From: a virus
Taxonomy: Duplodnaviria; Heunggongvirae; Uroviricota; Caudoviricetes
Virus record (IMG/VR): IMGVR_UViG_3300017613_001587
DNA: 44,531 bases
Reading direction: 5' to 3' (one strand)
A program made the position numbers and the translations under genes. Position 1 is the first letter of the stretch. Every line of letters begins with the position of its first letter. Positions 3 through 40,396 of this stretch are shown in pieces. A model generated the notes under the pieces. The model saw only the letters and a program-made list of their open reading frames with translations. It had not been told where the DNA came from and ran no database searches.

Positions 3-173
3 GATGTATGTTATGACGCCGAAGATCTAACTGAGCGTCTGGCCGAAGTAGTACCAGGCCGGAGCATCGGCGACCGTTTTGTTATTGCGGCCCATCGTGT
101 AGCAACTAACTCTTTCGTTATAGAGATGGATGACGGCTGCCAATTCAAGATGACCTGCGAGAAGCTCAACTGA
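3..173 (+). CDS. hypothetical protein, 5'-truncated (…DVCYDAEDL…CEKLN*)
   Basis: Open frame from the window edge to TGA at 171-173; co-directional with downstream genes. Confidence 0.6.
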   Translation, partial: DVCYDAEDLTERLAEVVPGRSIGDRFVIAAHRVATNSFVIEMDDGCQFKMTCEKLN

Positions 174-177
174 AGCC

Positions 178-201
178 CGGCGGGGGTTGGAGCCCCCGCC
201 G
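178..201 (+). other. GC-rich intergenic hairpin (no U-tract)
   Basis: CGGCGGGGG-ttggag-CCCCCGCCG, perfect 9-bp stem. Confidence 0.6.
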
Positions 202-218
202 CAACTTGAAGGGATGTT

Positions 219-1019
219 ATGAACTTCAAACATATTAAAGGGATGGTATGGGATAGGGACATACTCGTCCTTGGCGACCTTCATCATACTTGGCAGAAGC
301 CTAATATGCTAATTGCCAAGCATACACCTTCCATAGTTCTGCAGTGCGGCGATTTTGGCTGGTGGCCGAAATGGCATAAGACTACCCATGCATCTCATGG
401 TACATATAGAGTAGATCCAATGACTGGGATAAGGCGAGCAGCTCCGTTTAACCAATACGGCTTACGGCCCGGCAAAGCTAAAGTTTATTGGTGTCCTGGT
501 AATCATGAGGATTGGGAAGACCTAAATCGAAGAGCAGATTCTTTCAATCCAATCCACGTAGAAGTTTTTGATAATGTAATTTATATGCCCAGATGTGCAA
601 CTCTGATGTTGCCAGACGGCCGTAATGTGCTTTTCATGGGCGGGGCTTTATCAACAGACAAAGAATGGCGTAAATACCGCTATGATTGGTATCCTGAGGA
701 AGTAATCAACCAAGCGGATATTTACAATTTACCAGATGTTGATGTGGACATTGTTATAAGTCACACATCGCCAAGCTGGTTTAAACAGGAATTATTTGAT
801 AAATCTGATGATTGGCGACAATCTGATTCCTACTGGCTGGAGAAATTCAGAGACTCTTCCTGTTTAGCTCTGGATGTGGTTTGGGAGAAGTATAGACCAG
901 ATTTATGGTTTTTTGGACATTACCATATCTCCAAATTCGGTCAATATAGGAATACAAGGTGGTTTGCTCTGAATAAAGAGGCCAGCACTGGTTGGTGGAT
1001 GTTTCTACCGAAAGGATAA
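219..1019 (+). CDS. calcineurin-like metallophosphoesterase
   Basis: Motifs GDLH, CGDFG, PGNHE, SHT, GHYH in canonical order. Confidence 0.9.
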   Translation: MNFKHIKGMVWDRDILVLGDLHHTWQKPNMLIAKHTPSIVLQCGDFGWWPKWHKTTHASHGTYRVDPMTGIRRAAPFNQYGLRPGKAKVYWCPGNHEDWEDLNRRADSFNPIHVEVFDNVIYMPRCATLMLPDGRNVLFMGGALSTDKEWRKYRYDWYPEEVINQADIYNLPDVDVDIVISHTSPSWFKQELFDKSDDWRQSDSYWLEKFRDSSCLALDVVWEKYRPDLWFFGHYHISKFGQYRNTRWFALNKEASTGWWMFLPKG

Positions 1020-1045
1020 CGATGCTAATGATAATAAGGTTATAG

Positions 1046-1366
1046 ATGGTGATAGAAATGACAAACAAAGAACTATTCGCTCTAATTGAGGAATATGGCA
1101 CTGCTCGGGAAGAAATGGGCCGTTTGTCTGGTGCTGACAGGCATGATATGCTCATAAAGGCCTGTAAGCTTATAGCCAAGATAGAGCGGGAAATTCTACC
1201 AAGGCCTAAACCGGCAGAACACAAAGTATGTGTTAATTGTAGATGTGCTGACCATTCAGTCAGATACAGTGATTGGTGGTATTGCACTAATCCTGACAAT
1301 TTCAGAGATTTTACTGTTATAAGGAATGGCGTTAAAGCACCAGAATGGTGTAAAAACGGGGTGTAG
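1046..1366 (+). CDS. hypothetical protein with C-terminal Cys cluster (CVNC..C..C)
   Basis: ORF in operon context; start may be 1058. Confidence 0.65.
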   Translation: MVIEMTNKELFALIEEYGTAREEMGRLSGADRHDMLIKACKLIAKIEREILPRPKPAEHKVCVNCRCADHSVRYSDWWYCTNPDNFRDFTVIRNGVKAPEWCKNGV

Positions 1367-1433
1367 CGCAGTCTGGCAGCGCACCTGCTTTGGGAGCAGG
1401 GGGTCGGTGGTTCAAATCCACTCACCCCGACCA
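1357..1433 (+). tRNA. tRNA-Pro(TGG), CCA encoded
   Basis: Full cloverleaf; anticodon arm CCTGC-TT TGG GA-GCAGG; T loop TTCAAAT; ends ACCA. Confidence 0.97.
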
Positions 1434-2402: not shown

Positions 2403-2427
2403 ATCGTGGTCGAACATCATGGTCGAA
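2403..2427 (+). promoter_or_regulatory. tandem 12-bp motif ATC(G/A)TGGTCGAA x2, 13-nt period
   Basis: Intergenic; same tandem at 11326-11350 and a single variant at 30335-30346. Confidence 0.6.
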
Positions 2428-11326: not shown

Positions 11327-11350
11327 TCATGGTCGAAGATCATGGTCGAA
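11326..11350 (+). promoter_or_regulatory. tandem motif ATCATGGTCGAA x2, 13-nt period
   Basis: Two exact copies beginning in the stop codon of the upstream gene, followed by an A-rich tract and SD. Confidence 0.6.
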
Positions 11351-15630: not shown

Positions 15631-18600
15631 ATGAATTGGAGCGAAAAAGCAGGTCTGTTTTGTAGTAGTGTTGCCGGTCAATTCATCGCCAGAACAGAGG
15701 TCGAAGGCAAGAAGAGGGGCCTAGACTTTGGCATAAGCCTTCAGGTAGTGCAGGAGAATGGTTCCTGTTGGTTCACCTTCACAAAGGGTGAGGAGTCTCA
15801 CTCCTTCAATGTTCCGCTGGTATTCGGTGAGAACAACGTACTATTGATAGAGCAGAATGAAGTTCGCCGTGCAGTCTGTCCCTATCTTATGAAAGAAGAG
15901 GATCTAGTCCTTGATTACTACGCAGTGATGCAGAGGATTATCCTTGCTGATCCGCACGGCATTGTAAGTCCTGCCTTGGTGAAGAGATCCCCGTTCATCC
16001 AGCAGGTTGTATGGTCGTTTGCTAATGGCAACACGGCTGTCATCATGTACAATTTACAACGAGCCATTAATGAAGTGGTCAATCGTATGCCGCTTCATGA
16101 GACTTCACTCAACAGCTACGTGATGAACCACAGGTTGATCATAATTGACCCGCAGTTCGCAGCTATCCGCAGCCCAGAGGAACGTCTCGAATACCAGATC
16201 AATAAGAGCAGGGAGTATTTCCAGCGAGGTTGGACTCCTATTGGCCTGGCCGATGGTAACTTGGCTGATAAGAACTACACACTTACATGTGATATCAGAT
16301 ACTTAACTCCGTTCGGGATGAAATACCATAATCCTCAGCGGAATTTGTACTCCACTCTTGGCATGAAGGGAGACGAGTTACCTAACATTCGCTCACAATC
16401 GATGCAAAATCTGATGGACGGAGGCATCACCCGTAAAGGGTGGAATATGTTCACCTTGTTCGCTGATATCCCGGACGTGTTCGAGGATCAAATCATGGTG
16501 GATGTACGACATCAGAACAAGTTCATCACCTACGAGAAGCGCTTCCAGTGTTATGGGTTTCTCAAAGTCAAAGAGGGGCAGAAAGTTACACACGGGCAGA
16601 CCTTATCCATATCTGATAAAGCTACCACCAAGAAGTTCGATGTGGATTGTGATTCGGCACGTGTCTTACGCATCAGTGAATCCCTGGTCAACGTTGGTGG
16701 TGTCAAGACTCCGGTGTTTAACGTAGTAGTAGAGTATCGTAGGTATCTACGTGATGGAGTTAAGTTCACCAACTTGCATGGTAATAAAGGTGTCATCCGT
16801 ATGAAAGACTTGGGTTATGCGGTTGATCCTCGTACTGGTGAGCTTCGTAAGATAGATGTCATCGTGTCTGCAAAGTCTATCCATAAGAGAAAGAACTATG
16901 GACAGATACTCGAGGCTCTGCTGAATAACACAACTCTCCCAGAGAATAAGCCTGTAGTGCTTGATGACTTCTACGAGGTTGAACAGGACGTCGTTAAGAC
17001 AGTGCTAACCGGCAACGGCCTCCCCAGCGACGGCACCTGGCACTGTGAGACTTACCACGGCCCTATAGTTGGCATCTGTGGTGATATATTCTGGGGTGTG
17101 ATTGCCAGTGTGGAGAACTCTCTGTGGAATGAGGAAGCTACCATCCGTAAGAACACCAGAGATTTACGTACAGCTGGTCTTAAATTCTCCCACGTTGAGC
17201 TGAGAGCTTTACAAACTCGGTTCGGTAAAGACAATCCGATACTGGGTGAGGTATTAACCTACGCTCAGGGCAGTGATGATCTGCATGAGATCGTCAAGGT
17301 TCTTCAGTCTAAGAAGGGTTATCTGCCTGTAGGTACACCAGTGCGTCATGTATTTGATACCAACTTTGTCAATCAATCTGCTGGAACAATAGTGGATGAG
17401 GAATACCTGATCGATACTATCGTTGATGAGGAATTTGAGCCTGAGGGCTTCGCTCTCCAACTGCCCGTAGCCTACCAAGTGCTACGTGATTCAAAGGGCG
17501 AGGTGACATATGAGGGCGCTCCTCTTCCTCAATTGCCTGACGGTACTCGGGATGCCTTTACCTATGATAAGATATATATCCCTAAGTCTATCATGCGTCG
17601 CTGTTGGAGACATGATAACGGGAAGTACGGCCTCAATGAGATCGGTGTGTTAGTTAATAATATATTGATCATGGCATACCGGTTTGCAGGTGAGCCTACT
17701 GAGACTAGACATATATCTATGTTATATCGTACCATAGGTACATACTTTGCTCGTATGGCTGACATCATGGGTACCAAGCGTGGTGAGATAGCTCAGTTGG
17801 GTATGGCAGTTCGTTATCCGTTCTCATCCAAAGCAGTAGCTACTCTGTCTAATAGACTGCCTACTAACGTGATAGAGATCCATGAAACCATGGCTGCCCA
17901 ACTCCGTGTTAAGAACGGGGACGTAGTGCTAGTGGAGAGGTTCCCGTGTCTGGGATTCATGTCAGTGCGGCCTCAAAAGGTAAGGATTACCAAGGATGAG
18001 ATGGCCCGTTATACTATCCGTGTTAGCGGTAATTGTCTTTGCTCCTTAGGGCTGGATTTTGATGGTGATGTTATCTATCTGGCTTCTTTCCATACTCCTG
18101 AAGCTCGAGAACTATTGCGCGCCGAGTGGGATTCCCCTAATTCAGAGTGCTATTCAGTTATATGTCAGCTCAATGAGAAAGCTGGTCGGCCAACTACTTC
18201 TAATCTAGGACTCGATGATTATGAAATAGCAACGTTCGAGGCGCTCAATGCTGATACTCATGCGGCTATAGTATCCAACCTGACCGGTGTTAAGAGCCAT
18301 ACTGGTCCTGTCATTGCTCTAGCCTACAACCTAATGAGAATACTGGAGAACTCGTCAGTATGTGATCTTCAGTCCACCAACGTAGCCATTGAGTACTTCC
18401 TGGATCGCGTTGGTAATACAGTGTTCAAGCAGAAGCATGGTGTGAAGTCCTTGCATGCCATAGTAACAGAAGCTATCTGCTGCGGTGATGTTGAGATCCT
18501 AGTGTCGGAAGGATTCGATCGTGAGACTTCACAGATGATCGTGGATATCATTAGAGAGAAAGCTAAGACGCTGGGCGTCAATGATCTGAGGCTGTACTAT

Positions 18601-19053
18601 GAGAAAGCCAAAGAGAATGGATGGAGTAACATCATCAACCGCATAGTGCGAGAGCAAAACAAGATATACTACGCCAGTAGAGCTAATCTCGAAGCGTGTG
18701 AGTTGCTTGATCATTTAGAGGCTCCTGCTGTAGATATACCCAGTAAGATACTAAAGGACATCTTGTCTGGAAAAGTTGGTGCTCTGCGTACTAAGTTGGA
18801 AGAATGCCTCGAAGAGGACGCGTTAGAAACAATCCAGGACGTTGAGCATCGTGATGCGTGCAGATCGCTGATGGATCTGGTGGAAGAACTTCTAACAAAT
18901 AAACCTGTTACCAGTATCAAAGCATGCTTTGATAGAATGACAAGGAGCGAGTTATGCCAGTCAAAATCAACGATAGGTTCTACAACACGGGAGATCACAT
19001 TACCCTCAATAGCATGGCCGAGCGCTGTGTCCCCGGAGGCTACGCCGGTCTAA
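15631..19053 (+). CDS. single-chain two-barrel DNA-directed RNA polymerase (fused minimal beta + beta-prime cores)
   Basis: Beta-like FEDQIMV, GVKFTNLHGNKGV, KRKNYGQILE, GLKFSHVELRAL, followed by beta-prime-like KRGEIAQ…RYPFS, VERFPCL, GLDFDGD. Confidence 0.9.
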   Translation: MNWSEKAGLFCSSVAGQFIARTEVEGKKRGLDFGISLQVVQENGSCWFTFTKGEESHSFNVPLVFGENNVLLIEQNEVRRAVCPYLMKEEDLVLDYYAVMQRIILADPHGIVSPALVKRSPFIQQVVWSFANGNTAVIMYNLQRAINEVVNRMPLHETSLNSYVMNHRLIIIDPQFAAIRSPEERLEYQINKSREYFQRGWTPIGLADGNLADKNYTLTCDIRYLTPFGMKYHNPQRNLYSTLGMKGDELPNIRSQSMQNLMDGGITRKGWNMFTLFADIPDVFEDQIMVDVRHQNKFITYEKRFQCYGFLKVKEGQKVTHGQTLSISDKATTKKFDVDCDSARVLRISESLVNVGGVKTPVFNVVVEYRRYLRDGVKFTNLHGNKGVIRMKDLGYAVDPRTGELRKIDVIVSAKSIHKRKNYGQILEALLNNTTLPENKPVVLDDFYEVEQDVVKTVLTGNGLPSDGTWHCETYHGPIVGICGDIFWGVIASVENSLWNEEATIRKNTRDLRTAGLKFSHVELRALQTRFGKDNPILGEVLTYAQGSDDLHEIVKVLQSKKGYLPVGTPVRHVFDTNFVNQSAGTIVDEEYLIDTIVDEEFEPEGFALQLPVAYQVLRDSKGEVTYEGAPLPQLPDGTRDAFTYDKIYIPKSIMRRCWRHDNGKYGLNEIGVLVNNILIMAYRFAGEPTETRHISMLYRTIGTYFARMADIMGTKRGEIAQLGMAVRYPFSSKAVATLSNRLPTNVIEIHETMAAQLRVKNGDVVLVERFPCLGFMSVRPQKVRITKDEMARYTIRVSGNCLCSLGLDFDGDVIYLASFHTPEARELLRAEWDSPNSECYSVICQLNEKAGRPTTSNLGLDDYEIATFEALNADTHAAIVSNLTGVKSHTGPVIALAYNLMRILENSSVCDLQSTNVAIEYFLDRVGNTVFKQKHGVKSLHAIVTEAICCGDVEILVSEGFDRETSQMIVDIIREKAKTLGVNDLRLYYEKAKENGWSNIINRIVREQNKIYYASRANLEACELLDHLEAPAVDIPSKILKDILSGKVGALRTKLEECLEEDALETIQDVEHRDACRSLMDLVEELLTNKPVTSIKACFDRMTRSELCQSKSTIGSTTREITLPSIAWPSAVSPEATPV

Positions 19054-19459: not shown

Positions 19460-19852
19460 ATGGACAACCAAAGTGGAAATGATCGTGAGTTTCTGGGCAT
19501 CACCCAGAACGAGTGCACCTTTCAAGGGAAGGTAGTTGGTGATCCTGTCATTCAGAATGACAACTACGCATTCCTACACCTCAAGACTACCATCTCTGAG
19601 GTCGGTGCCAACGGACAGTGGGCAGATATTGTCGTCCAGATCCCGATTATTACGATGGACCCGAAGAAAGTTTCGGTCATCCAGAAGTATGTGCAGGACG
19701 GACGTGAGCTTCTGTTGCTCACCTATTACAAACCATGGACAAACCAGGGTCAGGCACAACATGCCTTTATGATCAAGAAGATGACCCTTGGCCGGAAAAA
19801 GTGGGTGCCTAAAGACCAAGTCCCAGGCACTCCTGCACTGCCGGTACAATAG
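19460..19852 (+). CDS. ssb: single-stranded DNA-binding protein (OB fold)
   Basis: NECTFQGKVVGDP…L….W…V pattern resembling SSB N.V.L.G.L..DP; lacks the acidic C-terminal tip. Confidence 0.6.
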   Translation: MDNQSGNDREFLGITQNECTFQGKVVGDPVIQNDNYAFLHLKTTISEVGANGQWADIVVQIPIITMDPKKVSVIQKYVQDGRELLLLTYYKPWTNQGQAQHAFMIKKMTLGRKKWVPKDQVPGTPALPVQ

Positions 19853-19869: not shown

Positions 19870-20292
19870 ATGGACAAGCAAGCAGCAGCCTTGGGGGCAG
19901 CCCCAACAGCAGCTGCTGGTACATGCTTGGCTGTAGATCCAGCGAATCTGAGTCCCGAGGAGAGAATCCTTCTCCTCGAGGAGCAGATGCGGCACATGCA
20001 GCGTGTAATTATTAAGTTGCGGAAAGATCAACACGGATCGCCTAAGCCAGCACTGCCAGCGGCTAACTTTAACAAAGATGGCATCCCGATCGGCACTGTA
20101 TGTTTCGGTGCCACGGAGAAGTCGCCGTTCCTATACTACCTAACCGTGGATGCTGAAGGCTACACGGTGGGTTCAACCCAGTTCGCCTCACTGTCAGCAG
20201 CAGCTGAAGCTGTCAGCTATGTACGTCGTAGTGGCTGGACGTTTTGGAAGCTGTTAGATGGAAGGACTCTAAAGGATGCCTTTAAGGCGTAG
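19870..20292 (+). CDS. coiled-coil + RAMA/DUF4357-like DNA-binding domain protein
   Basis: FASLSAAAEAV…RSGWTFWK matches the S.S.AA…NGW..W pattern. Confidence 0.6.
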   Translation: MDKQAAALGAAPTAAAGTCLAVDPANLSPEERILLLEEQMRHMQRVIIKLRKDQHGSPKPALPAANFNKDGIPIGTVCFGATEKSPFLYYLTVDAEGYTVGSTQFASLSAAAEAVSYVRRSGWTFWKLLDGRTLKDAFKA

Positions 20293-20294
20293 TT

Positions 20295-20984
20295 ATGGCC
20301 AGAAAAGGGAAGAAGAATAAAAAGAATAAGAAGAAACAACGGGCGAAGAAGAATTATAATAAGAAGGAATTTGCAGAGGTATTCTGCCAGACATGTTTAA
20401 TTTGTGATGGTGGAAAGCCTACCTTCTGTTATAGTGGCTTGTATCAACATGAACCCAAGCCCTTTATTAATAAAGTCTTCAATAACCTAGTGGACATCCA
20501 TGCTATCTATCAGAGCATGGGTAGACCCACGAAGTCAATGTCTATTGAGCAGTTCCAGAATGTTGTATGTCGTACCGGTATCTGTTTCAATGGTGATTGT
20601 TACGCCTCGGCCACATGTGAGCAGCTACATATTTGTTATAAGGATTTCCTTAAACAAATGGGTGTGCCTAATCCAGGCATCATACGAGAGATCAAGCTGA
20701 GTGGTCTGATAGAGTTCAAGAATAATAAAAGCAGTAAGCGTTACATCTCATACAGTAAAAAGAAGAAGCGTAAAGGGAAGAATCGATATGTCTGTACTCC
20801 CTATGCTACTTTCTTTTCGAGAGACAACGCTGACTTTCAGGCGGAGATTAAAAGGATACTCTATGGAGATATCGATAGCCAACAAGATAAGGATCAAGAA
20901 CTGTCCCCCACCGATACAGGAGCAGCTGATCGAGATACTGAGGGTGGAGAACCCAAAGTACACGGAAGCGATAGCGAAGGGTAG
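20295..20984 (+). CDS. basic, Cys-rich (metal-binding) hypothetical protein
   Basis: Lys-rich termini; about ten Cys including CQTCLIC. Confidence 0.7.
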   Translation: MARKGKKNKKNKKKQRAKKNYNKKEFAEVFCQTCLICDGGKPTFCYSGLYQHEPKPFINKVFNNLVDIHAIYQSMGRPTKSMSIEQFQNVVCRTGICFNGDCYASATCEQLHICYKDFLKQMGVPNPGIIREIKLSGLIEFKNNKSSKRYISYSKKKKRKGKNRYVCTPYATFFSRDNADFQAEIKRILYGDIDSQQDKDQELSPTDTGAADRDTEGGEPKVHGSDSEG

Positions 20985-22287
20985 ATGGGTAGGCAATCTT
21001 AAACCTTTCTTGATGAACTTTGATATTCTGCCTGATGATAGCATCAGAATACCACGTGGCATGCGTTTGCCTTTGCTTGGTATGATTGATAGTAATACAG
21101 ATTATACTATCGTAGATGGTCGATCAAACCATGGTTATGACGATGTAAACTCTTCTATCATTCAATACAGGCCCTACCAAGAGAAAGCCATGCATGCCAT
21201 GTACCAGGCTGAAGAGGGGCTGCTTGTTGCGCCCGCGGGCAGTGGGAAGACTGTCCTCGGTCTCAGCATGATTCCATTATATGGACAGCCCTGTCTTTGG
21301 CTAACTCATACCCGTGCACTAGCCTACCAGGCTCTAGAAAGGATCAAACAATTTCTACCAAGCATGGGGAAGGACGATGTGGGTTTAATCGGTGACGGTA
21401 AGTGGAAGATCGGGCGGTGGATTACCGTTGGACTGATCCCAACCCTTGTCAGACGCCCAGCGGAGGTGTACGCAATGCGCGACAACTTCGGCTTGGTGGT
21501 GCTTGATGAAGCTCACCATTGTCCTGCAAGCACATTCCTGCAGGTAGTGAGCAGCCTTAACCCTTTCTTTTTGTATGGGTTGACTGCCACCCCATATCGC
21601 AGGGATAAATTAGAAAACTTGATGTTTCAAACAATCGGCCCGGAAATTATCCGTATTCCAGTGTCAGAAGTAGAGGCAGTGGGGGGAGTAATTATGCCCA
21701 AAGTTCTGTATCGTACAGTGCACTCCAAACCAATTCACCACAATAACATCCAGACTATTCTCAAAGAGAACATCGTTCCTAATTCAAAGAGGAATGGCTT
21801 AATCGTCGGGGATGTGTTGCGTGAAGCCACGGACGGAAACTTTTGTGTTGTGATGACAGATCGCAAGGCACATGCTGATATCCTCTACGATCTTATTTCT
21901 GTAGGCTGGGAGAAGACAGGCATCGCTACTGGTAAGTACAGCAAGAAGTATGTAGCTGAACAAGCCGCGCTCTTGAACAGTAAAGAAATCACTGTTCTTG
22001 TTTGCACATTCGCGTTGCTTGGTGAGGGATTTGATGTTCCCTTTCTCAATCGTGCCTTCGTGACCATGCCATTCAGAGCTGAAGGCAAGGTAGAACAACT
22101 CGTCGGTAGGATACAAAGGACTGCCGATGGAAAAACTGATTCAATTGTCTATGACTACGTGGATGCAGACATAGGCGTGGTACAAAACCAGTTCTATACC
22201 AAGAGCAATAACGATTGTAGGTTCAACGCGTACTCTCGGCTGGGACTGGAGATCGAACCTTACGGAAATCTGGAGGGCGAACTATGA
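20863..22287 (+). CDS. superfamily 2 (DEAH/ResIII/UvsW-like) helicase
   Basis: APAGSGKT, LDEAHH, GLTATP, GEGFDVP, QLVGRIQR; start 20863 preferred over 20788. Confidence 0.92.
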   Translation: MEISIANKIRIKNCPPPIQEQLIEILRVENPKYTEAIAKGRWVGNLKPFLMNFDILPDDSIRIPRGMRLPLLGMIDSNTDYTIVDGRSNHGYDDVNSSIIQYRPYQEKAMHAMYQAEEGLLVAPAGSGKTVLGLSMIPLYGQPCLWLTHTRALAYQALERIKQFLPSMGKDDVGLIGDGKWKIGRWITVGLIPTLVRRPAEVYAMRDNFGLVVLDEAHHCPASTFLQVVSSLNPFFLYGLTATPYRRDKLENLMFQTIGPEIIRIPVSEVEAVGGVIMPKVLYRTVHSKPIHHNNIQTILKENIVPNSKRNGLIVGDVLREATDGNFCVVMTDRKAHADILYDLISVGWEKTGIATGKYSKKYVAEQAALLNSKEITVLVCTFALLGEGFDVPFLNRAFVTMPFRAEGKVEQLVGRIQRTADGKTDSIVYDYVDADIGVVQNQFYTKSNNDCRFNAYSRLGLEIEPYGNLEGEL

Positions 22288-22304: not shown

Positions 22305-23534
22305 ATGGACATACCTATTAGAGTTTCGAGCAAGATGGACACAGCTGAAGCTCCTGCCCGCGAGGCCAAGACGATTAGAATGCCTGGAGACCTACGGGAG
22401 ATGGCAGACTACGCCGTCGGTGATTATGTTGCAGTTAGAACCAGTGATGGTAGGTTATTCTCACTAGCAGTAGAGAAAGCCTTTGAGGATGACGCCAAGA
22501 CTGATTCACTGCAAGCATATGTCACCACTGATACATATAATCAGATAGTTCGCGGCTCTACTCAGTGCTGCGATATAGTTGATTTGGTCGACGGAATAAC
22601 CTTGGGATGTGATCCAGAGATGATGGTAATTGATAGAGCCACCGGTCATCTGGTATCCGCTCAATATTTCTTTGGTCTAAAGAAGTGGGGAGCTGTAGGC
22701 TATGATGGCCTACTGTTAGAGTTCCGGCCACTGCCCAGTACAGATGAGGCTGTAGTAGTAGAGAATATGTATAATCTACTATCTGTAGCCAGAGCTGCAC
22801 TGAATACCAGTAAGATGTATCCCAACACAATGATGGCTGGTATATCATCCTTTCATGGTAAGGCGGCAGTAGCAAGGAATGTACAAAGCAACACCGCCAT
22901 GTTTGCACCTAACACCAAGCTCACGGCAGGCTTTCACCTACATTACGGATTACCTAAAGAGATTTTAGGGTATCAAAAGAGGTTCGTAGCTACTCAGGTG
23001 GTGAAGGCACTCGATTATTATGTCGGCATTCCATCCGTAATCCCTGAAGGATACAACGATAGTTATCGTCGCACTGTACAGGGCATAGAGTATGGGAAGC
23101 CAGGCATGTATCGTATTGATCACCGTACATTGGAGTATCGAACTCCTGGTGCTGCTCTTATGAAGCACCCTATCATGGCGCAGGGTCTGCTAGGCCTAGG
23201 CGCGGTGGTGATTGAGGATATCGTCAGCAGAGTGAAAGCTATAACTCATAACTTTACCCAGCTGAATGAGATCGCAACCGATGCGGACATAAGGATTCTA
23301 TATCCACATATCCCACCGGTAATGTCAATTTTTCAATCAATCTGTTCTCCAACTACTGATGTGGCTAAAAGTCATTTGGCTACTATAAGAAAGGATGTGG
23401 AAAACATGGTTGGTTATGCCCGTCGGGCTGGATCGATCAATAACTTTTTCGATAACATTGAGACTCAGTTCTCGATAGATGTAGAAGATAACTGGTGGAG
23501 GTATAAAAACAATGGGGAGAGACAATCGGGATAA
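22305..23534 (+). CDS. phiEco32-like COOH.NH2 ligase type 2 with extra N-terminal domain
   Basis: LGCDPEMM, YDGLLLEFRP, AGFHLHYG, YGKPGMYR, LEYRTP. Confidence 0.88.
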   Translation: MDIPIRVSSKMDTAEAPAREAKTIRMPGDLREMADYAVGDYVAVRTSDGRLFSLAVEKAFEDDAKTDSLQAYVTTDTYNQIVRGSTQCCDIVDLVDGITLGCDPEMMVIDRATGHLVSAQYFFGLKKWGAVGYDGLLLEFRPLPSTDEAVVVENMYNLLSVARAALNTSKMYPNTMMAGISSFHGKAAVARNVQSNTAMFAPNTKLTAGFHLHYGLPKEILGYQKRFVATQVVKALDYYVGIPSVIPEGYNDSYRRTVQGIEYGKPGMYRIDHRTLEYRTPGAALMKHPIMAQGLLGLGAVVIEDIVSRVKAITHNFTQLNEIATDADIRILYPHIPPVMSIFQSICSPTTDVAKSHLATIRKDVENMVGYARRAGSINNFFDNIETQFSIDVEDNWWRYKNNGERQSG

Positions 23535-25128
23535 GTGGACGTTCTACGTTCATCCATCCAAAAAGACCATCGATGCCACAGAAGCCCGGTATTGGAAGTC
23601 GATGCTCCACAAAATCCTGAAGGTAGGGTTAGAGTTCGAGTTCAATCTACCGAACAAAAACGGTACCTGCAAGGGCGATAACAATGCATGTCCCTGCAAA
23701 CACATGGCGGACAAAGCGTGCTGGCAAGATTGTACTCGTGCCAAGGACTGCGAAGCTGCCAAGAAAGATCAATGCTTTGGTCTATTCTGTACCGGCTTCC
23801 TCAGCTATTGTGTAGTCTGCGATAAGTTTGAGGTTGATTGTAAGAGCTGCGAGCATCGTTATGATCCCAACCGCAATCCTGATTCGATCAGGGAGCGCAT
23901 GAACAATGAACTGCACCCAAGCCAGAGCTACGGCAACGTCACCAAACACGGTGTTCACAGTATCACCACGGATGGTTCGCTGCTAGGCAAGAAAGGTGCA
24001 GAGATCATTACAGTTGGTAGAAGGCCAGACTACTGGGAATTTTTCAAGATGTCCAAAGACATCATCGACCTGGCCAACGAGAACAATGCTTATGTGAATG
24101 AGCGTTGCTCCATCCATGCGCATCTATTGGCAAGCTACTACGGTAAGTTGCCCGGCGGTAAAGACGGCGGACCAGGTGTGCCCAATCAAGTCAACGAGAT
24201 GGAGAAAGATATGCCCGAGATCATACTGGCAAACTTTCATCAGCTCTGCAGACGTTATCAGAATGCCATGACCTGGATGACAATGGGACTGGATGATCCC
24301 AAGCAGATGACCCGCTGGGAGAAGTTCCGTGTGTCTGTACTCCATATCTCTGCCATCATGAACAGTATGCAACGAGTGGTGCAGGAAGTGTCCTCGAATG
24401 CCGGTGGAAATAAATACGGGTGGGTTAATTACAACTACTGTCAGTTCAAAGACAGTGGTGCCCTCAGCAGAGTCCATGTCGAGATGCGAGTGATGGACGG
24501 CCTGATGTCCCCAAGTGCGGTAGCTTCTTTGAGCTGCTTGTACTACTCCCTCATGATAAAAGCCGTTGAGATATCCCGATATGGTATCGTGGAAGTCGGG
24601 GATAAAGATTGGCTGCAGCGGGCAGAGAATGTCAAGAGCTGCTTGCTCAATAACATGAAGGGCTACCAGGACGGTGATAGATTTGGTGATACCTCTGCGC
24701 TGTCCCAGCACTACGAGACTCTGATCTCCGAATCGTTTGATCTGATATCCCAGGTGAAACATATCCTGATGAAACTAGGACCTGCCTATGATGTCCTGGA
24801 GAAACTGGCCGAACGTCCTTGCTCCTTACGGCGCTGCGACGGTGAGCCATGGGAAAAGATTGAAGCAGATCTTGCGATCCCTATGACTAAAGATGATCAC
24901 TTCACCCGTAAGCTGGCCGAGATAATTGATCTCCGGTTAGTTGATCAGTGTACTGATATCTCTGAATGGGTGAACGAAGTCAGCAACCTGATGCGTGATG
25001 ATCGTGAACTAAACATCGACCCCGATGACGATACAGTCGAGGATAAGATCGTTGAATACACCAGTCGTAAACAAAACGACGGTGAGATGATCTTTCTTGA
25101 TCGTGTTGGTTCTATGGCCTTGATCTAG
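23512..25128 (+). CDS. putative amidoligase (Amidoligase_2-like) with 12-Cys insertion
   Basis: VGLEFEF, TDGSL..GAEIIT, CSIHAHL, KYGWVN, HVEMR. Confidence 0.85.
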   Translation: MGRDNRDKWTFYVHPSKKTIDATEARYWKSMLHKILKVGLEFEFNLPNKNGTCKGDNNACPCKHMADKACWQDCTRAKDCEAAKKDQCFGLFCTGFLSYCVVCDKFEVDCKSCEHRYDPNRNPDSIRERMNNELHPSQSYGNVTKHGVHSITTDGSLLGKKGAEIITVGRRPDYWEFFKMSKDIIDLANENNAYVNERCSIHAHLLASYYGKLPGGKDGGPGVPNQVNEMEKDMPEIILANFHQLCRRYQNAMTWMTMGLDDPKQMTRWEKFRVSVLHISAIMNSMQRVVQEVSSNAGGNKYGWVNYNYCQFKDSGALSRVHVEMRVMDGLMSPSAVASLSCLYYSLMIKAVEISRYGIVEVGDKDWLQRAENVKSCLLNNMKGYQDGDRFGDTSALSQHYETLISESFDLISQVKHILMKLGPAYDVLEKLAERPCSLRRCDGEPWEKIEADLAIPMTKDDHFTRKLAEIIDLRLVDQCTDISEWVNEVSNLMRDDRELNIDPDDDTVEDKIVEYTSRKQNDGEMIFLDRVGSMALI

Positions 25129-30335: not shown

Positions 30336-30346
30336 TCATGGTCTAA
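30335..30346 (+). promoter_or_regulatory. single variant of the intergenic motif (ATCATGGTCTAA)
   Basis: 11/12 match to ATCATGGTCGAA, starting in the upstream stop codon; followed by AAAATCTAGAAA. Confidence 0.5.
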
Positions 30347-36727: not shown

Positions 36728-36739
36728 CCGAGATACGAA

Positions 36740-37430
36740 AAGTCGGTAGACAAACATAGCTCTACCGACAAAAGGGACGCAGTGATTGTGAGCCTGCGCA
36801 CCGAGCGGAAGCTCTCGTGACCTCAGCGATAACGTTGGGTAATTGCGGTATGAGGATCTACATACGCTACCTTAAATGCGGTACCGTTCCTGGGTCAATC
36901 GTACCTATAAAGCCAAATCAAACAACCGGTTCGGTCAGGGTTACCATCTTCGGCTAAATAAACCAAGTGTATTTTTCTTATAAGTTCGATCAGTTCTGAA
37001 AGCAGTCTTTGTATACACACAATGCTAAGGAACGTTAAATTTCGCTTAGGAAAATATGGTTGGTACTGAACCGCGTACCTAACGCGGTGTTCTCTTCGCC
37101 CTTTGTGATCAGTCAAGAGGAAAGGTATGACAAAGGAAGCACCAAAGTCCTGAGAGACTACTCCAGGCAGCTTCTGGGCGCCAAAGTACTGCAGCTGATA
37201 CAAAGGTAACAATACGTCGTGGGATGTCGTTCCTGTTGCCAGCAAGCTAGGTAATTACAAAGTAATGTCCTGAGGAGGATACTGAAATGATTTACCTAGG
37301 GACTCCAAATCCCAATAGGAAGACTTAGTTCAATACATAGGCGAGCCTCTGTCAGAGGACGCAAGTTCAACTATGATGTCTTGCTCATAGCGCGTTCTAC
37401 ACACTTGCCAACGACAAGCAAGAGTATTGA
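36740..37430 (+). ncRNA. ORF-poor, hairpin-dense region; putative large structured RNA of unknown class
   Basis: Stems such as 36742-50/36761-69, 37071-76/37082-87, 37100-06/37130-36, 37205-11/37234-40, 37247-54/37292-99, 37379-85/37417-23; strand assumed. Confidence 0.5.
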
Positions 37431-37445
37431 GATGTTAATTTATTA

Positions 37446-37789
37446 AGTGATATAGCATAGGCCAGGTTACTAATGCGCCTGCTACCCAAAAAGCGCTCGG
37501 TCCCAAGAGCGTCAGCTGTTTATATGAGACCCTACCAGGGTACACCCTGGATACTATTCTCTAAGTTCGGCTGTCATAACAAACTTCTATAACTTATGGC
37601 GACGATATAGCCATCGAGGGTTTTTGCAAGTGGCATCATCAGCTGATACTTTAGCCCTCATGAATCTAAAGTAAAACTTGCCGAGCTACTGCACGTAGTC
37701 AGCTATATGTCGTAGTGCTCGTAGTGCAAAGCTGACATTGGGAAATAGCGGGAGAAGGTTCTTCGCAGTTCGAATCTGCCCTATCACTG
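37446..37789 (+). ncRNA. tRNA-shaped RNA with ~250-nt pseudoknotted insert in the anticodon loop (tmRNA-like architecture or intron-containing tRNA)
   Basis: Acceptor AGTGATA/TATCACT, D stem GCAT/ATGC, anticodon stem CCTGCTA/TAGCGGG, variable hairpin, T arm GCAG-TTCGAAT-CTGC. Confidence 0.75.
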
Positions 37790-37799
37790 AGTAAATAAA

Positions 37800-38400
37800 G
37801 CATGAGTCGTGATGTTCCACGCACAAAAGCGTGAGCTTAAAGTTTCGTGTAATCCATGCACGGAAGTTGTACCCGATGACCAGTGGTCATCAATTAACAC
37901 CTCCTTAACGGCCTACCCTGTGGTGGGGGTAGGCCACAACGCTTGTAGTACTGGATAGTTTTTAGACTGAAACGTGAGCTGATAAAGACGTTTCCTTAAT
38001 TTGCATAGGCCGGTTCCGCAGACTGTGAGCCTACGCTGGAAAGGTAGTTTTGATGCCATGACACATAAAACTAAGAACTGTCTGTTCTATCCTTAAGTTA
38101 GATAAAGTTCTGAGCGTACCGGACCAGCTTATAGTACCCCGAAACAAAGTACCCTATCGCAGGGGAAACGGAATAGGGGGAAGGAAGCATACTCCTACGT
38201 GGCTCAACCAACCTTATCTAATGGGTAGACACAGGTATCGCGTGGGATGAGGGTGGGTAAATTTGAATATATTCTTCTTGAAGGAAGAATTGATGATATA
38301 AAGGTGGGTTCCTAGACCTACGGAGGAAGTGGCAAACGTCTAGCGGTCCAACATAGCCGCTAGTGCGCCTCCTAATTTTATGTTACCTCCTTATCAAGCT
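37800..38400 (+). ncRNA. structured non-coding region with group II intron domain II/III-like segment
   Basis: Stems 37910-18/37927-35, 37969-75/37988-94, 38340-46/38357-63; GGA linker + GCTT-ATAGTA…GAAGG-AAGC at 38121-38188. Confidence 0.4.
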
Positions 38401-38640
38401 GGTTGAACTGGTCATTCAGCCAGCACAAGCTTAATTGCTACCAATCGTGGGTTCCCACTGAGCGGCAGACTATGGGAACATCTGGCCCAGCATTCGTGGA
38501 GTCCTCCCAGCTGGGGAATAACTGAGGACCTAGGTCGCTCACAACGTGCTCGATAGTTCAAGAAAAATACCTGCTCCGGGAGATGGCCACCCGTACCGCA
38601 GGAGTTGTAGCACGGTGTTCTAACCACCGTAGCTGCTCGA

Positions 38641-38687
38641 GCACACAAGCTTGGTCCAGTGGGCCAAGTGAGTTGGTGTTTTTTTTT
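38641..38687 (+). terminator. intrinsic terminator
   Basis: Hairpin core CTTGGTCC-agt-GGGCCAAG, extendable to 38678, followed by a T9 tract. Confidence 0.65.
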
Positions 38688-38892
38688 ATTTTTTATTCTC
38701 CTTTCATTTATTTGTTTCTGGTTCACGGCTAGCTGGTCAAGTTTCCTCCTTTTTTCTTGGCCAGCACAAGGGTGTACTCACCCCCTATCGCACTAGCGAA
38801 ACTCCGGTCTTTCAGGACATGAGCCTGAACGGTCTTGGGGGTGGCCGACAAGGGGTGCACCTGAAAATTTTTTATATACGGGATGGTCTGCT

Positions 38893-40288: not shown

Positions 40289-40361
40289 GATCCTGTAGCT
40301 CAGTGGTTAGAGTGCCCGCCTATAAGGCGGGAGGTCCCTCGTTCGAGTCGAGGCAGGCCCT
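40289..40361 (+). tRNA. atypical/pseudo tRNA, Ile-like body, nominal anticodon ATA
   Basis: D arm GCTC/GAGT, anticodon arm CCCGC-CT ATA AG-GCGGG, T arm CCTCG-TTCGAGT-CGAGG; two acceptor mismatches; no CCA. Confidence 0.7.
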
Positions 40362-40396
40362 CAGTGATAAACGATCCCTGTGTATTCAAAGTCCTT

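Follow-up and report, generated by a model that had tools for sequence, protein, structure and literature searches.

The window analyzed here, the whole stretch of 44,531 nucleotides (nt) from IMG/VR virus record IMGVR_UViG_3300017613_001587 (Caudoviricetes), is a one-strand phage fragment with a GC content of ~46%. Within a tightly packed, operon-like block it carries an open reading frame (ORF) for a protein of 1140 amino acids (aa), P0001, in which conserved blocks of the beta subunit of RNA polymerase (RNAP) are followed by those of the beta-prime subunit (Table 1). In cellular RNAP, beta and beta-prime together come to ~2,700 residues, to which alpha and omega are added. In Escherichia coli the two large subunits are separate chains of 1342 and 1407 aa, whereas P0001 has both in 1140 aa. 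From the motifs, fold models, family conservation and gene context described below, we conclude that P0001 is probably a functional, self-contained, DNA-dependent two-barrel RNAP and the free, non-virion member of a pair of phage polymerases.

Motif layout of P0001

An earlier note on this DNA, made from the letters alone, had proposed a minimal single-chain fusion with beta blocks preceding beta-prime blocks, and all nine of the motifs that it quoted are present and collinear with RpoB and RpoC. The bacterial counterparts that it gave are real, and E. coli K-12 has them in matching order (RpoB 673, 812, 1063, 1105 and 1267; RpoC 334, 346, 423 and 458). In the beta-like half, HNPQRNLYSTLGMK and FEDQIMV correspond to E. 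coli beta 673 HDDANRALMGANMQ and 812 FEDSILV, and in an hhalign comparison a different fused polymerase has EHDDPNRTLMGANM and FEDG at these places. The catalytic strand of the beta barrel, GVKFTNLHGNKGV, spans nt 16756-16794 (~16777 in the earlier note); the strand aligns with Thermus thermophilus beta GDKLANRHGNKGV...SRMNLGQILE and with E. coli beta 1047-1126, and the region of K378 and K386 aligns to GDKxAxRHGNKGV of bacterial beta. Further on, a local alignment pairs aa 516-528 with RpoB 1267-1279. The DFDGD motif lies at 18055-18069, exactly as first reported, within a full GLDFDGD at 18049-18069. These motifs are more closely spaced than in the bacterial enzyme, the first and last beta motifs being 283 aa apart in P0001 versus 594 aa in E. 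coli and the beta-prime motifs spanning 91 aa versus 124 aa. The C-terminal tail of P0001 overlaps the next gene, which starts at 19014.

Table 1. Features of the polymerase gene, its associated genes in the window, and the giant ORFs of large relatives.
Feature	Position	Strand	Basis
P0001, single-chain beta/beta-prime RNA polymerase	15631..19053	+	1140 aa, ATG start; ORF list and translation
Beta-like half, aa 1-546, miniature of entire beta/Rpb2	15631..17268	+	VIA-align, family profile
HNPQRNLYSTLGMK (aa 233) and FEDQIMV (aa 284)	16327..16500	+	motif positions, conservation
Beta barrel catalytic strand GVKFTNLHGNKGV (aa 376; K378, K386), then KRKNYGQILE (aa 419)	16756..16914	+	
GLKFSHVELRAL (aa 516), counterpart of E. 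coli beta 1267 GQRFGEMEVWAL	17176..17211	+	local alignment
Beta-prime-like half, aa ~559-1044, miniature of entire beta-prime/Rpb1	17305..18762	+	model, Foldseek, VIA-align
Helical hairpin aa 670-713, then KRGEIAQ (aa 716)..RYPFS (aa 728)	17638..17826	+	DSSP, profile alignment
Beta-prime barrel: VERFPCL (aa 768) and Mg-binding GLDFDGD (aa 807; D809, D811, D813)	17932..18069	+	
33-residue helix aa 874-906, candidate bridge helix	18250..18348	+	DSSP, conservation
C-terminal tail aa 1091-1140, unconserved, predicted disordered	18901..19050	+	pLDDT <50; column conservation 0.09-0.18
XPB/Rad25-like superfamily 2 helicase	20944..22287	+	NCBIfam XPB 2e-18, rad25 5e-12; Pfam ResIII, DEAD
Divergent sigma-70-family protein, 275 aa	33952..34779	+	phrog_351 3.4e-10; Sigma70_r2 1.2e-3
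Tape-measure ORF with polymerase module, 4651 aa	G001:C1:250757-264712 (L069 757-14712)	minus	
Tape-measure ORF with polymerase module, 4562 aa	L070 368-14053		
Tape-measure ORF with polymerase module, 7674 aa	G003 148949-171970 (L071/L072)		

Sequence matches and fold models of the two halves

Domain searches place the two catalytic barrels in the expected halves of the chain. Pfam Rpb2_6 matches aa 356-468 (E value (E) 2e-6, exceeding the gathering score) and Rpb1_2 matches aa 748-826 (E 2.7e-5; 24.9 bits versus a cutoff of 25.3, 0.4 bits short), a cutoff that is passed by the polymerase copies of four of five large relatives described below. Weak beta and beta-prime matches in PHROGs and NCBIfam agree with this assignment. 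In the PDB, the family profile matched bacterial beta at E 1e-9 and Rpb1, AR9 beta-prime and the tape-measure polymerase of Thermus phage P23-45 at 1e-4 to 1e-3. For a profile of the beta-prime half, the best PDB sequence match was P23-45 gp96 (E 8e-5, over the barrel), and the beta-prime barrel profile aligned with the DFDGD of both Rpb1 and gp96.

A whole-chain AlphaFold2 model, built from a 40-sequence alignment, has a predicted local distance difference test score (pLDDT) of 89.2 and a predicted TM score of 0.84, with disorder limited to the last ~50 residues; the second half (aa 548-1095) was folded separately (pLDDT 87.6). With VIA-align, aa 1..546 align with Rpb2 41..1112 (Z 21-22, ~500 residues, root-mean-square deviation ~5), and this beta half also aligns structurally with the beta subunits of African swine fever virus, archaea, plastids and bacteria. 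In Foldseek, the beta-prime half matches the N-terminal beta-prime subunit of AR9 non-virion RNAP best (7s01_d, 6e-10) and bacterial beta-prime next, and VIA-align pairs residues 12..497 of the half model with Rpb1 21..1432 (Z 14.8, ~400 residues). The comparison with bacterial RNAP and phiKZ/AR9 subunits that the earlier note had suggested (VIA-align, Foldseek) matched both halves to large subunits, and its description of a reduced, cellular-like enzyme is borne out by Pfam matches and fold models alike. Because the halves align along the whole of Rpb2 and Rpb1, both large subunits appear to be represented end to end, each at ~40% of its size. The models point to a protein made of shrunken whole subunits, unlike a fusion of two isolated barrels.

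Several elements of the transcription machinery may be placed on this model. Sigma region 2 docks on the clamp helices of bacterial beta-prime. In P0001, DSSP finds helices at 670-687 and 692-713 that form a hairpin ahead of the KRGEIAQ..RYPFS block, and the profile aligns aa ~708-759 with RpoC 324-375 and Rpb1 328-381; by position and conservation this hairpin is a candidate for the clamp helices. The helix at aa 874-906, which follows the barrel and through which the structural alignment with Rpb1 passes, is a candidate bridge helix with six invariant residues (K888, T891, G892, Y899, R903 and E906), and a conserved loop, FKQKHG (aa 932-937), is a possible trigger loop. When P0001 was aligned pairwise with E. 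coli RpoC, nothing convincing emerged for the bridge helix, trigger loop or clamp helices, so that the model is the sole basis for placing the first two.

The best viral structural neighbor of the whole-chain model is a protein named 'minor tail protein' from an uncultured siphovirus (E 4e-16, TMq 0.49). The best structural matches of the whole-chain model also include the BFVD entries A0A172Q0S6, A0A172Q021_2 (Acinetobacter phage vB_AbaM_ME3) and A0A075BUT7_2 (Microcystis phage MaMV-DC), at E 1e-13 to 3e-10; to judge by their predicted folds, these uncharacterized proteins of cultured phages may be unannotated single-chain two-barrel polymerases.

Size, conservation and spread of the family

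P0001 belongs to a large family, with at least 334 matches of a conserved length (~1100-1200 aa), on contigs of up to 330 kilobases (kb), in a word-indexed search and 113 clusters at 50% identity in an exhaustive search. Of the 120 best matches listed, all but three shorter fragments are near full-length; lengths are mostly 1100-1244 aa, and identity to P0001 is 49-86%. All members come from metagenomic phage contigs, a few of them mis-binned to archaeal or bacterial metagenome-assembled genomes, and none carries a functional name. Among 50,697 deposited phage genomes there was no match at E<=1e-5 (tblastn, megablast); at E<=1, five marginal barrel matches appeared, including Vibrio phages D181, D148 and D69 and the RpoC of Bacillus phage BpSp. 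DNA near-identical to the polymerase gene occurs in seawater and marine sediment metagenomes of one study, and no RNA dataset was listed among the public runs matching it.

Across 40 sequences that are 34-81% identical to P0001, ~60 columns are invariant. They include R237, N238, D286, K378, N381, N385, K386, G387, R420, N422, Q425, E428, G516, K518 and E523 in the beta part and R770, P772, D809, D811, G812 and D813 in the beta-prime part, so that both catalytic lysines and the DFDGD aspartates are all fixed; by column conservation, variation is free solely in the C-terminal ~60 residues. Conservation of this kind bears on whether P0001 is a transcriptase at all. RNA-dependent polymerases and the DNA polymerase PolD are two-barrel enzymes as well (PMC7281927), and P0001 might be imagined to serve in priming, to carry out RNA-templated synthesis like QDE-1 or to be an inactive structural relic. 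We consider any of these very improbable, given that the catalytic residues are all invariant across a deep family, that both halves resemble DNA-dependent multisubunit polymerases over their full length and not QDE-1 or PolD, and that the gene is syntenic with those for a sigma-like factor and an XPB-like helicase.

The family profile scores split phage beta-like proteins of ~550 aa at E 1e-17 to 1e-21 (Z = 1e6) versus 3e-5 for E. coli RpoB, a difference in sequence similarity which hints that the beta half is akin to phage multisubunit enzymes and is not a recent capture from bacteria. Metagenomic contigs of 10-67 kb also carry a second set of fused beta-to-beta-prime proteins, likewise unnamed (P0221, P0222, P0223, P0226 and P0231, 1002-1042 aa; P0225, 1345 aa), with matches to Rpb2_6 at 1e-31 to 1e-37, to Rpb1_2 at 1e-11 to 1e-19 and to Rpb2_3. 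These proteins, whose Pfam scores are much stronger, look like a fused-polymerase lineage of their own, and fusion has therefore probably arisen more than once. In a divergent relative, P0210 (506 aa, E 1e-39 to the family profile; L076 281-2169), the ORF stops at about position 494 of the family; the match is weakly extended by a downstream ORF that overlaps it, and this 2-kb contig holds either a split form or a frameshift.

The polymerase neighborhood

Synteny was counted over 13 related IMG/VR loci (L003-L015). In all 13 the polymerase ORF is single, the XPB/Rad25-like helicase is found next to it, and the genes run polymerase, helicase, ligase, 538-aa protein, amidotransferase; the helicase may be linked to transcription. 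Between polymerase and helicase lie two small conserved genes, at 19460-19852 (conserved in 9/13 loci) and 19870-20292 (10/13), neither of which has a polymerase-related Pfam or PHROG match.

Other features of the window are of interest in their own right. A cluster of COOH-NH2 ligases, GAT-I/GAT-II amidotransferases, GGACT/gamma-glutamyl cyclotransferase, ATP-grasp ligases and GNAT proteins surrounds the polymerase (window 8074-32015), and its downstream part is syntenic in 13/13 loci (ligase 22305, 538-aa protein 23512, amidotransferase 25140, amidotransferase 27139, ligase 29007). The 538-aa protein (window 23512-25128) is always found between the COOH-NH2 ligase and an amidotransferase, with 32-54% identity across the 13 loci, and has no Pfam, PHROG or NCBIfam match. 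An intergenic motif, TCATGGTCGAA, occurs as a tandem pair 13 nt apart (window 2404-2427, 11327-11350, 30336-30346), immediately behind a stop codon, with 45-65 nt remaining to the following start codon; an A-rich tract and a ribosome-binding site come after it. It has six matches at <=1 mismatch versus 0.67 expected, was not found in the related phages, and may be an operator or promoter element; a sigma-70 consensus scan gave no excess over shuffled sequence. Within a genome that is otherwise tightly packed, ~2.1 kb (window 36728-38892) holds no called gene and no Rfam match at the gathering threshold. At 40289-40362, ARAGORN predicts a tRNA-Tyr whose anticodon, ATA, is unusual, and Rfam confirms a tRNA there (50 bits).

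Large relatives and a tape-measure-fused polymerase

Five IMG/VR relatives of 228-298 kb, three of them rated 100% complete and one of those three with terminal repeats, each encode exactly one full-length copy of the polymerase. Searches for an alpha subunit (PF01000) and for the C-terminal part of beta-prime as a separate piece (PF04998, Rpb1_5) were negative in all five and positive in 14/14 control genomes. The scanned ORFs of the window, whose own genome is incomplete, also gave no alpha match, in line with the earlier remark that alpha is missing nearby.

These genomes bear on whether the chain works unaided. P0001 could be a catalytic core that is inactive alone and needs small phage subunits, comparable to K2ORF7p of a yeast plasmid enzyme or gp68 of phiKZ. 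Candidates for such subunits would be the two small conserved genes beside the polymerase; the yeast plasmid enzyme does have a separate 132-aa beta-prime C-terminal piece (PMC6211774), and the sigma-like factor and helicase co-occur with the polymerase. We nevertheless judge this dependence unlikely. The beta-prime half spans Rpb1 21-1432, so no subunit end is obviously missing; neither Rpb1_5 nor alpha occurs in the complete relatives; and the small neighbors match nothing polymerase-related in Pfam or PHROGs. A self-contained catalytic chain remains our preferred reading of P0001, and since it is accompanied by a sigma-like factor and a helicase, that chain may be single without the enzyme being single-component.

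All five large relatives also contain a giant ORF (3325-7674 aa) with a weaker match to the family profile or to Rpb1_2. We examined the giant ORFs of three (G001, G002 and G003). Each has DFDGD, with FEDQ and GxKGV in addition in G001 and G003, and each has a PhageMin_Tail domain downstream of the polymerase module (E 4e-25, 5e-25 and 1.5e-29). The polymerase part of the G001 ORF aligns with the family over 329 columns that include the IPxxFEDQ block (hhalign probability 96%, E 3e-9), and a PDB sequence search with a tape-measure-fused polymerase region (P0234:550-1500) returned nothing at E<=1. The window, which is a fragment end, has no ORF of this kind. Judged by their sequences, the free and tape-measure-fused enzymes of the relatives look like paralogs. 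Because related phages encode this second, polymerase-like tape-measure protein, P0001 is probably one of a pair and not its phage's sole polymerase. The earlier note had made its proposal depend on activity without further large subunits encoded elsewhere: as far as alpha and Rpb1_5 go none was found, but the relatives do encode a second large polymerase-like protein.

A sigma-like gene downstream of the polymerase

The sigma-like gene of the window lies ~15 kb downstream of the polymerase, and its product matches TIGR02937 at 6.9e-9, under that model's cutoff. In four of the five large relatives a sigma-like gene is likewise found 14-17 kb downstream of the polymerase on the same strand, and some of the 59 homologs of the sigma-like protein share contigs with polymerase homologs. 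The protein is a candidate specificity factor for P0001 or for the host enzyme. A complex prediction of polymerase aa 270-830 with the sigma-like protein gave no verdict (score 0.00) and is no evidence either way.

On another reading, P0001 would be sigma-independent and recognize promoters itself, as P23-45 gp64 and YonO do, and the sigma-like factor would redirect the host polymerase. Known single-chain two-barrel phage polymerases work without sigma (PMC5467207, PMC10770324), Group 2 jumbo phages, which have no polymerase, carry sigma factors for the host enzyme (PMC7824862), and a flap-tip helix is not evident in the model of P0001. Set against this, the position of the sigma-like gene is kept in the window and in four of five large relatives, and the predicted helical hairpin sits at the clamp-helix location to which sigma region 2 binds. 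We judge sigma independence less likely than not, and the sigma-like factor may act with P0001.

Comparison with known polymerases

The nearest architectural precedent is K2ORF6p of pGKL2, a cytoplasmic linear 'killer plasmid' of yeast (PMC6211774), which, as in P0001, has beta followed by beta-prime in one chain, of ~1000 aa. It too is recognizably cellular-type, has shortened spacers between the conserved blocks and is associated with a superfamily 2 helicase, which co-purifies with the yeast plasmid polymerase; its authors described the beta/beta-prime fusion as unique (PMC6211774). Whereas K2ORF6p keeps nearly all beta regions and is without most of the beta-prime clamp (regions a1-a10), the beta-prime half of P0001 aligns with Rpb1 21..1432, as given above. 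K2ORF6p also needs the separate small subunit K2ORF7p for the last beta-prime regions, and no separate Rpb1_5 piece was found in the large relatives of the phage. Its host is a yeast plasmid, for which a poxvirus-like origin has been proposed, and our comparison with P0001 is by description and not by sequence. The earlier note had left room for an already characterized family of the same architecture; we found none, although K2ORF6p is a fused, cellular-looking precedent.

The pairing of enzymes recalls phage P23-45, in which the tape-measure-fused virion RNAP gp96 transcribes the pre-early genes, one of which encodes a free, non-virion RNAP (PMC10770324). The P23-45 pair gp96/gp64 (PDB 8H2M, 8H2N) resembles the tape-measure-fused and free single-chain pair of the relatives. 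The P23-45 enzymes, however, have almost no cellular similarity beyond DxDxD and work without sigma, whereas the P0001 family keeps many cellular motifs and travels with a sigma-like gene. Our PDB sequence matches and listed structural matches do not include gp64, but these lists are filled by cellular polymerases and its absence is uninformative. P23-45 differs from the relatives in genome size as well, at ~84 kb against 230-300 kb.

Like P0001, the non-virion RNAPs of phiKZ and AR9 (PDB 7OGP, 7S00, 7S01; PMC7598289, PMC7824862) are phage-encoded, alpha-less, cellular-type two-barrel enzymes, and a Rad25/XPB-like helicase is linked with their genes, the linkage to phiKZ-type polymerase genes having been described by Iyer et al. 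In these phages each large subunit is divided over two or more polypeptides, the enzymes consist of four or five chains with a larger total size, and no sigma homolog is present, whereas P0001 is one chain. YonO of SPbeta, the crAss-like gp66 and QDE-1 have two barrels in one polypeptide, as P0001 does, but their similarity to cellular enzymes is limited to the metal-binding motif and the flap insert is absent (PMC5467207, PMC7824862). P0001, unlike the YonO clade, matches Rpb2_6 and Rpb1_2 and aligns to the whole of Rpb2 and Rpb1; the earlier statement that the YonO and crAss-like enzymes are more diverged is correct, in that cellular-type motifs lost there are kept in P0001.

The mReC phages (Weinheimer and Aylward 2020, PMC7481178) are uncultured large Caudovirales with cellular-type polymerase genes whose beta and beta-prime are deep-branching. 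Their selection required COG0085 and COG0086 as two distinct proteins, both >=800 aa, and the motif NADxDGD (PMC7481178), a screen that would have excluded P0001, because it is one protein with GLDFDGD; with its fused chain of 1140 aa and this motif, P0001 is not an mReC polymerase. The moraphages (PMC12619734) are a different lineage and encode no polymerase. In the literature searched, which included jumbo-phage reviews and comparative papers, we found no described phage family of P0001 architecture; one of the 23 dendrogram families in PMC10770324 ('derivatives with fused DPBB domains', where DPBB stands for double-psi beta-barrel) could be the P0001 family.

Proposed role of P0001 and its partners

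The architecture of P0001, its conserved catalytic residues, the size of its family and the co-occurrence of the genes are observed; its catalytic activity, its non-virion role and its use of the sigma-like factor and the helicase are what we infer. The active site would lie within the single chain, with K378 and K386 contributed by the beta barrel and D809, D811 and D813 holding the catalytic Mg2+, and the long helix after the barrel would act as the bridge helix. We propose that the alpha dimer is unneeded because the covalent link from beta to beta-prime replaces the assembly platform. By analogy with the complete relatives, a tape-measure-fused paralog would be injected and start transcription; P0001, made after infection, would then transcribe most of the phage genome without relying on host RNAP. 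The sigma-70-like factor would possibly set promoter choice by docking at the candidate clamp-helix hairpin, and the neighboring XPB-like helicase may assist transcription.

Several observations weigh against this scheme. The host polymerase, and not P0001, could be the enzyme that the sigma-like factor serves. The window is a fragment at the end of a 102-kb contig (the source phage genome is incomplete, because the window ends where this contig ends), and the tape-measure-fused partner is seen solely in relatives that are 37-48% identical. The small conserved neighbors (130 and 140 aa) could be unrecognized subunits. The bridge helix, trigger loop and clamp helices are placed by the model and by residue patterns, not by significant sequence alignment. 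In the model the flap (aa ~298-372) consists entirely of beta-strands, and a tip helix that could receive sigma region 4 is not obvious.

More speculatively, and at odds that we would put well below even, P0001 could be the smallest sigma-using cellular-type RNAP, a chain of ~125 kDa that needs only a phage sigma-like factor for promoter-specific transcription and forms the second stage of a relay after the injected tape-measure paralog; the two enzymes would together free a widespread lineage of marine and groundwater jumbo phages from the host polymerase.

Implications

Every core element of both large subunits is apparently kept in 1,140 residues that can still be aligned with the cellular enzyme. 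For specialists, the interest lies in this end-to-end miniaturization with the cellular motifs kept, together with a linked sigma-like factor and a tape-measure-fused paralog. If active, P0001 reveals what a two-barrel enzyme can do without and would offer a compact, genetically simple polymerase for structural work and engineering. An active P0001 would also make fusion a third architecture among the cellular-type polymerases of phages, beside the split (phiKZ, AR9) and separate (mReC) forms. The family bears on the debate over whether single-chain and split viral polymerases derived from cellular ones or are older, and the tape-measure-fused paralog of the relatives suggests that the strategy of P23-45 is a common plan of uncultured large phages and not an oddity of a single Thermus phage.

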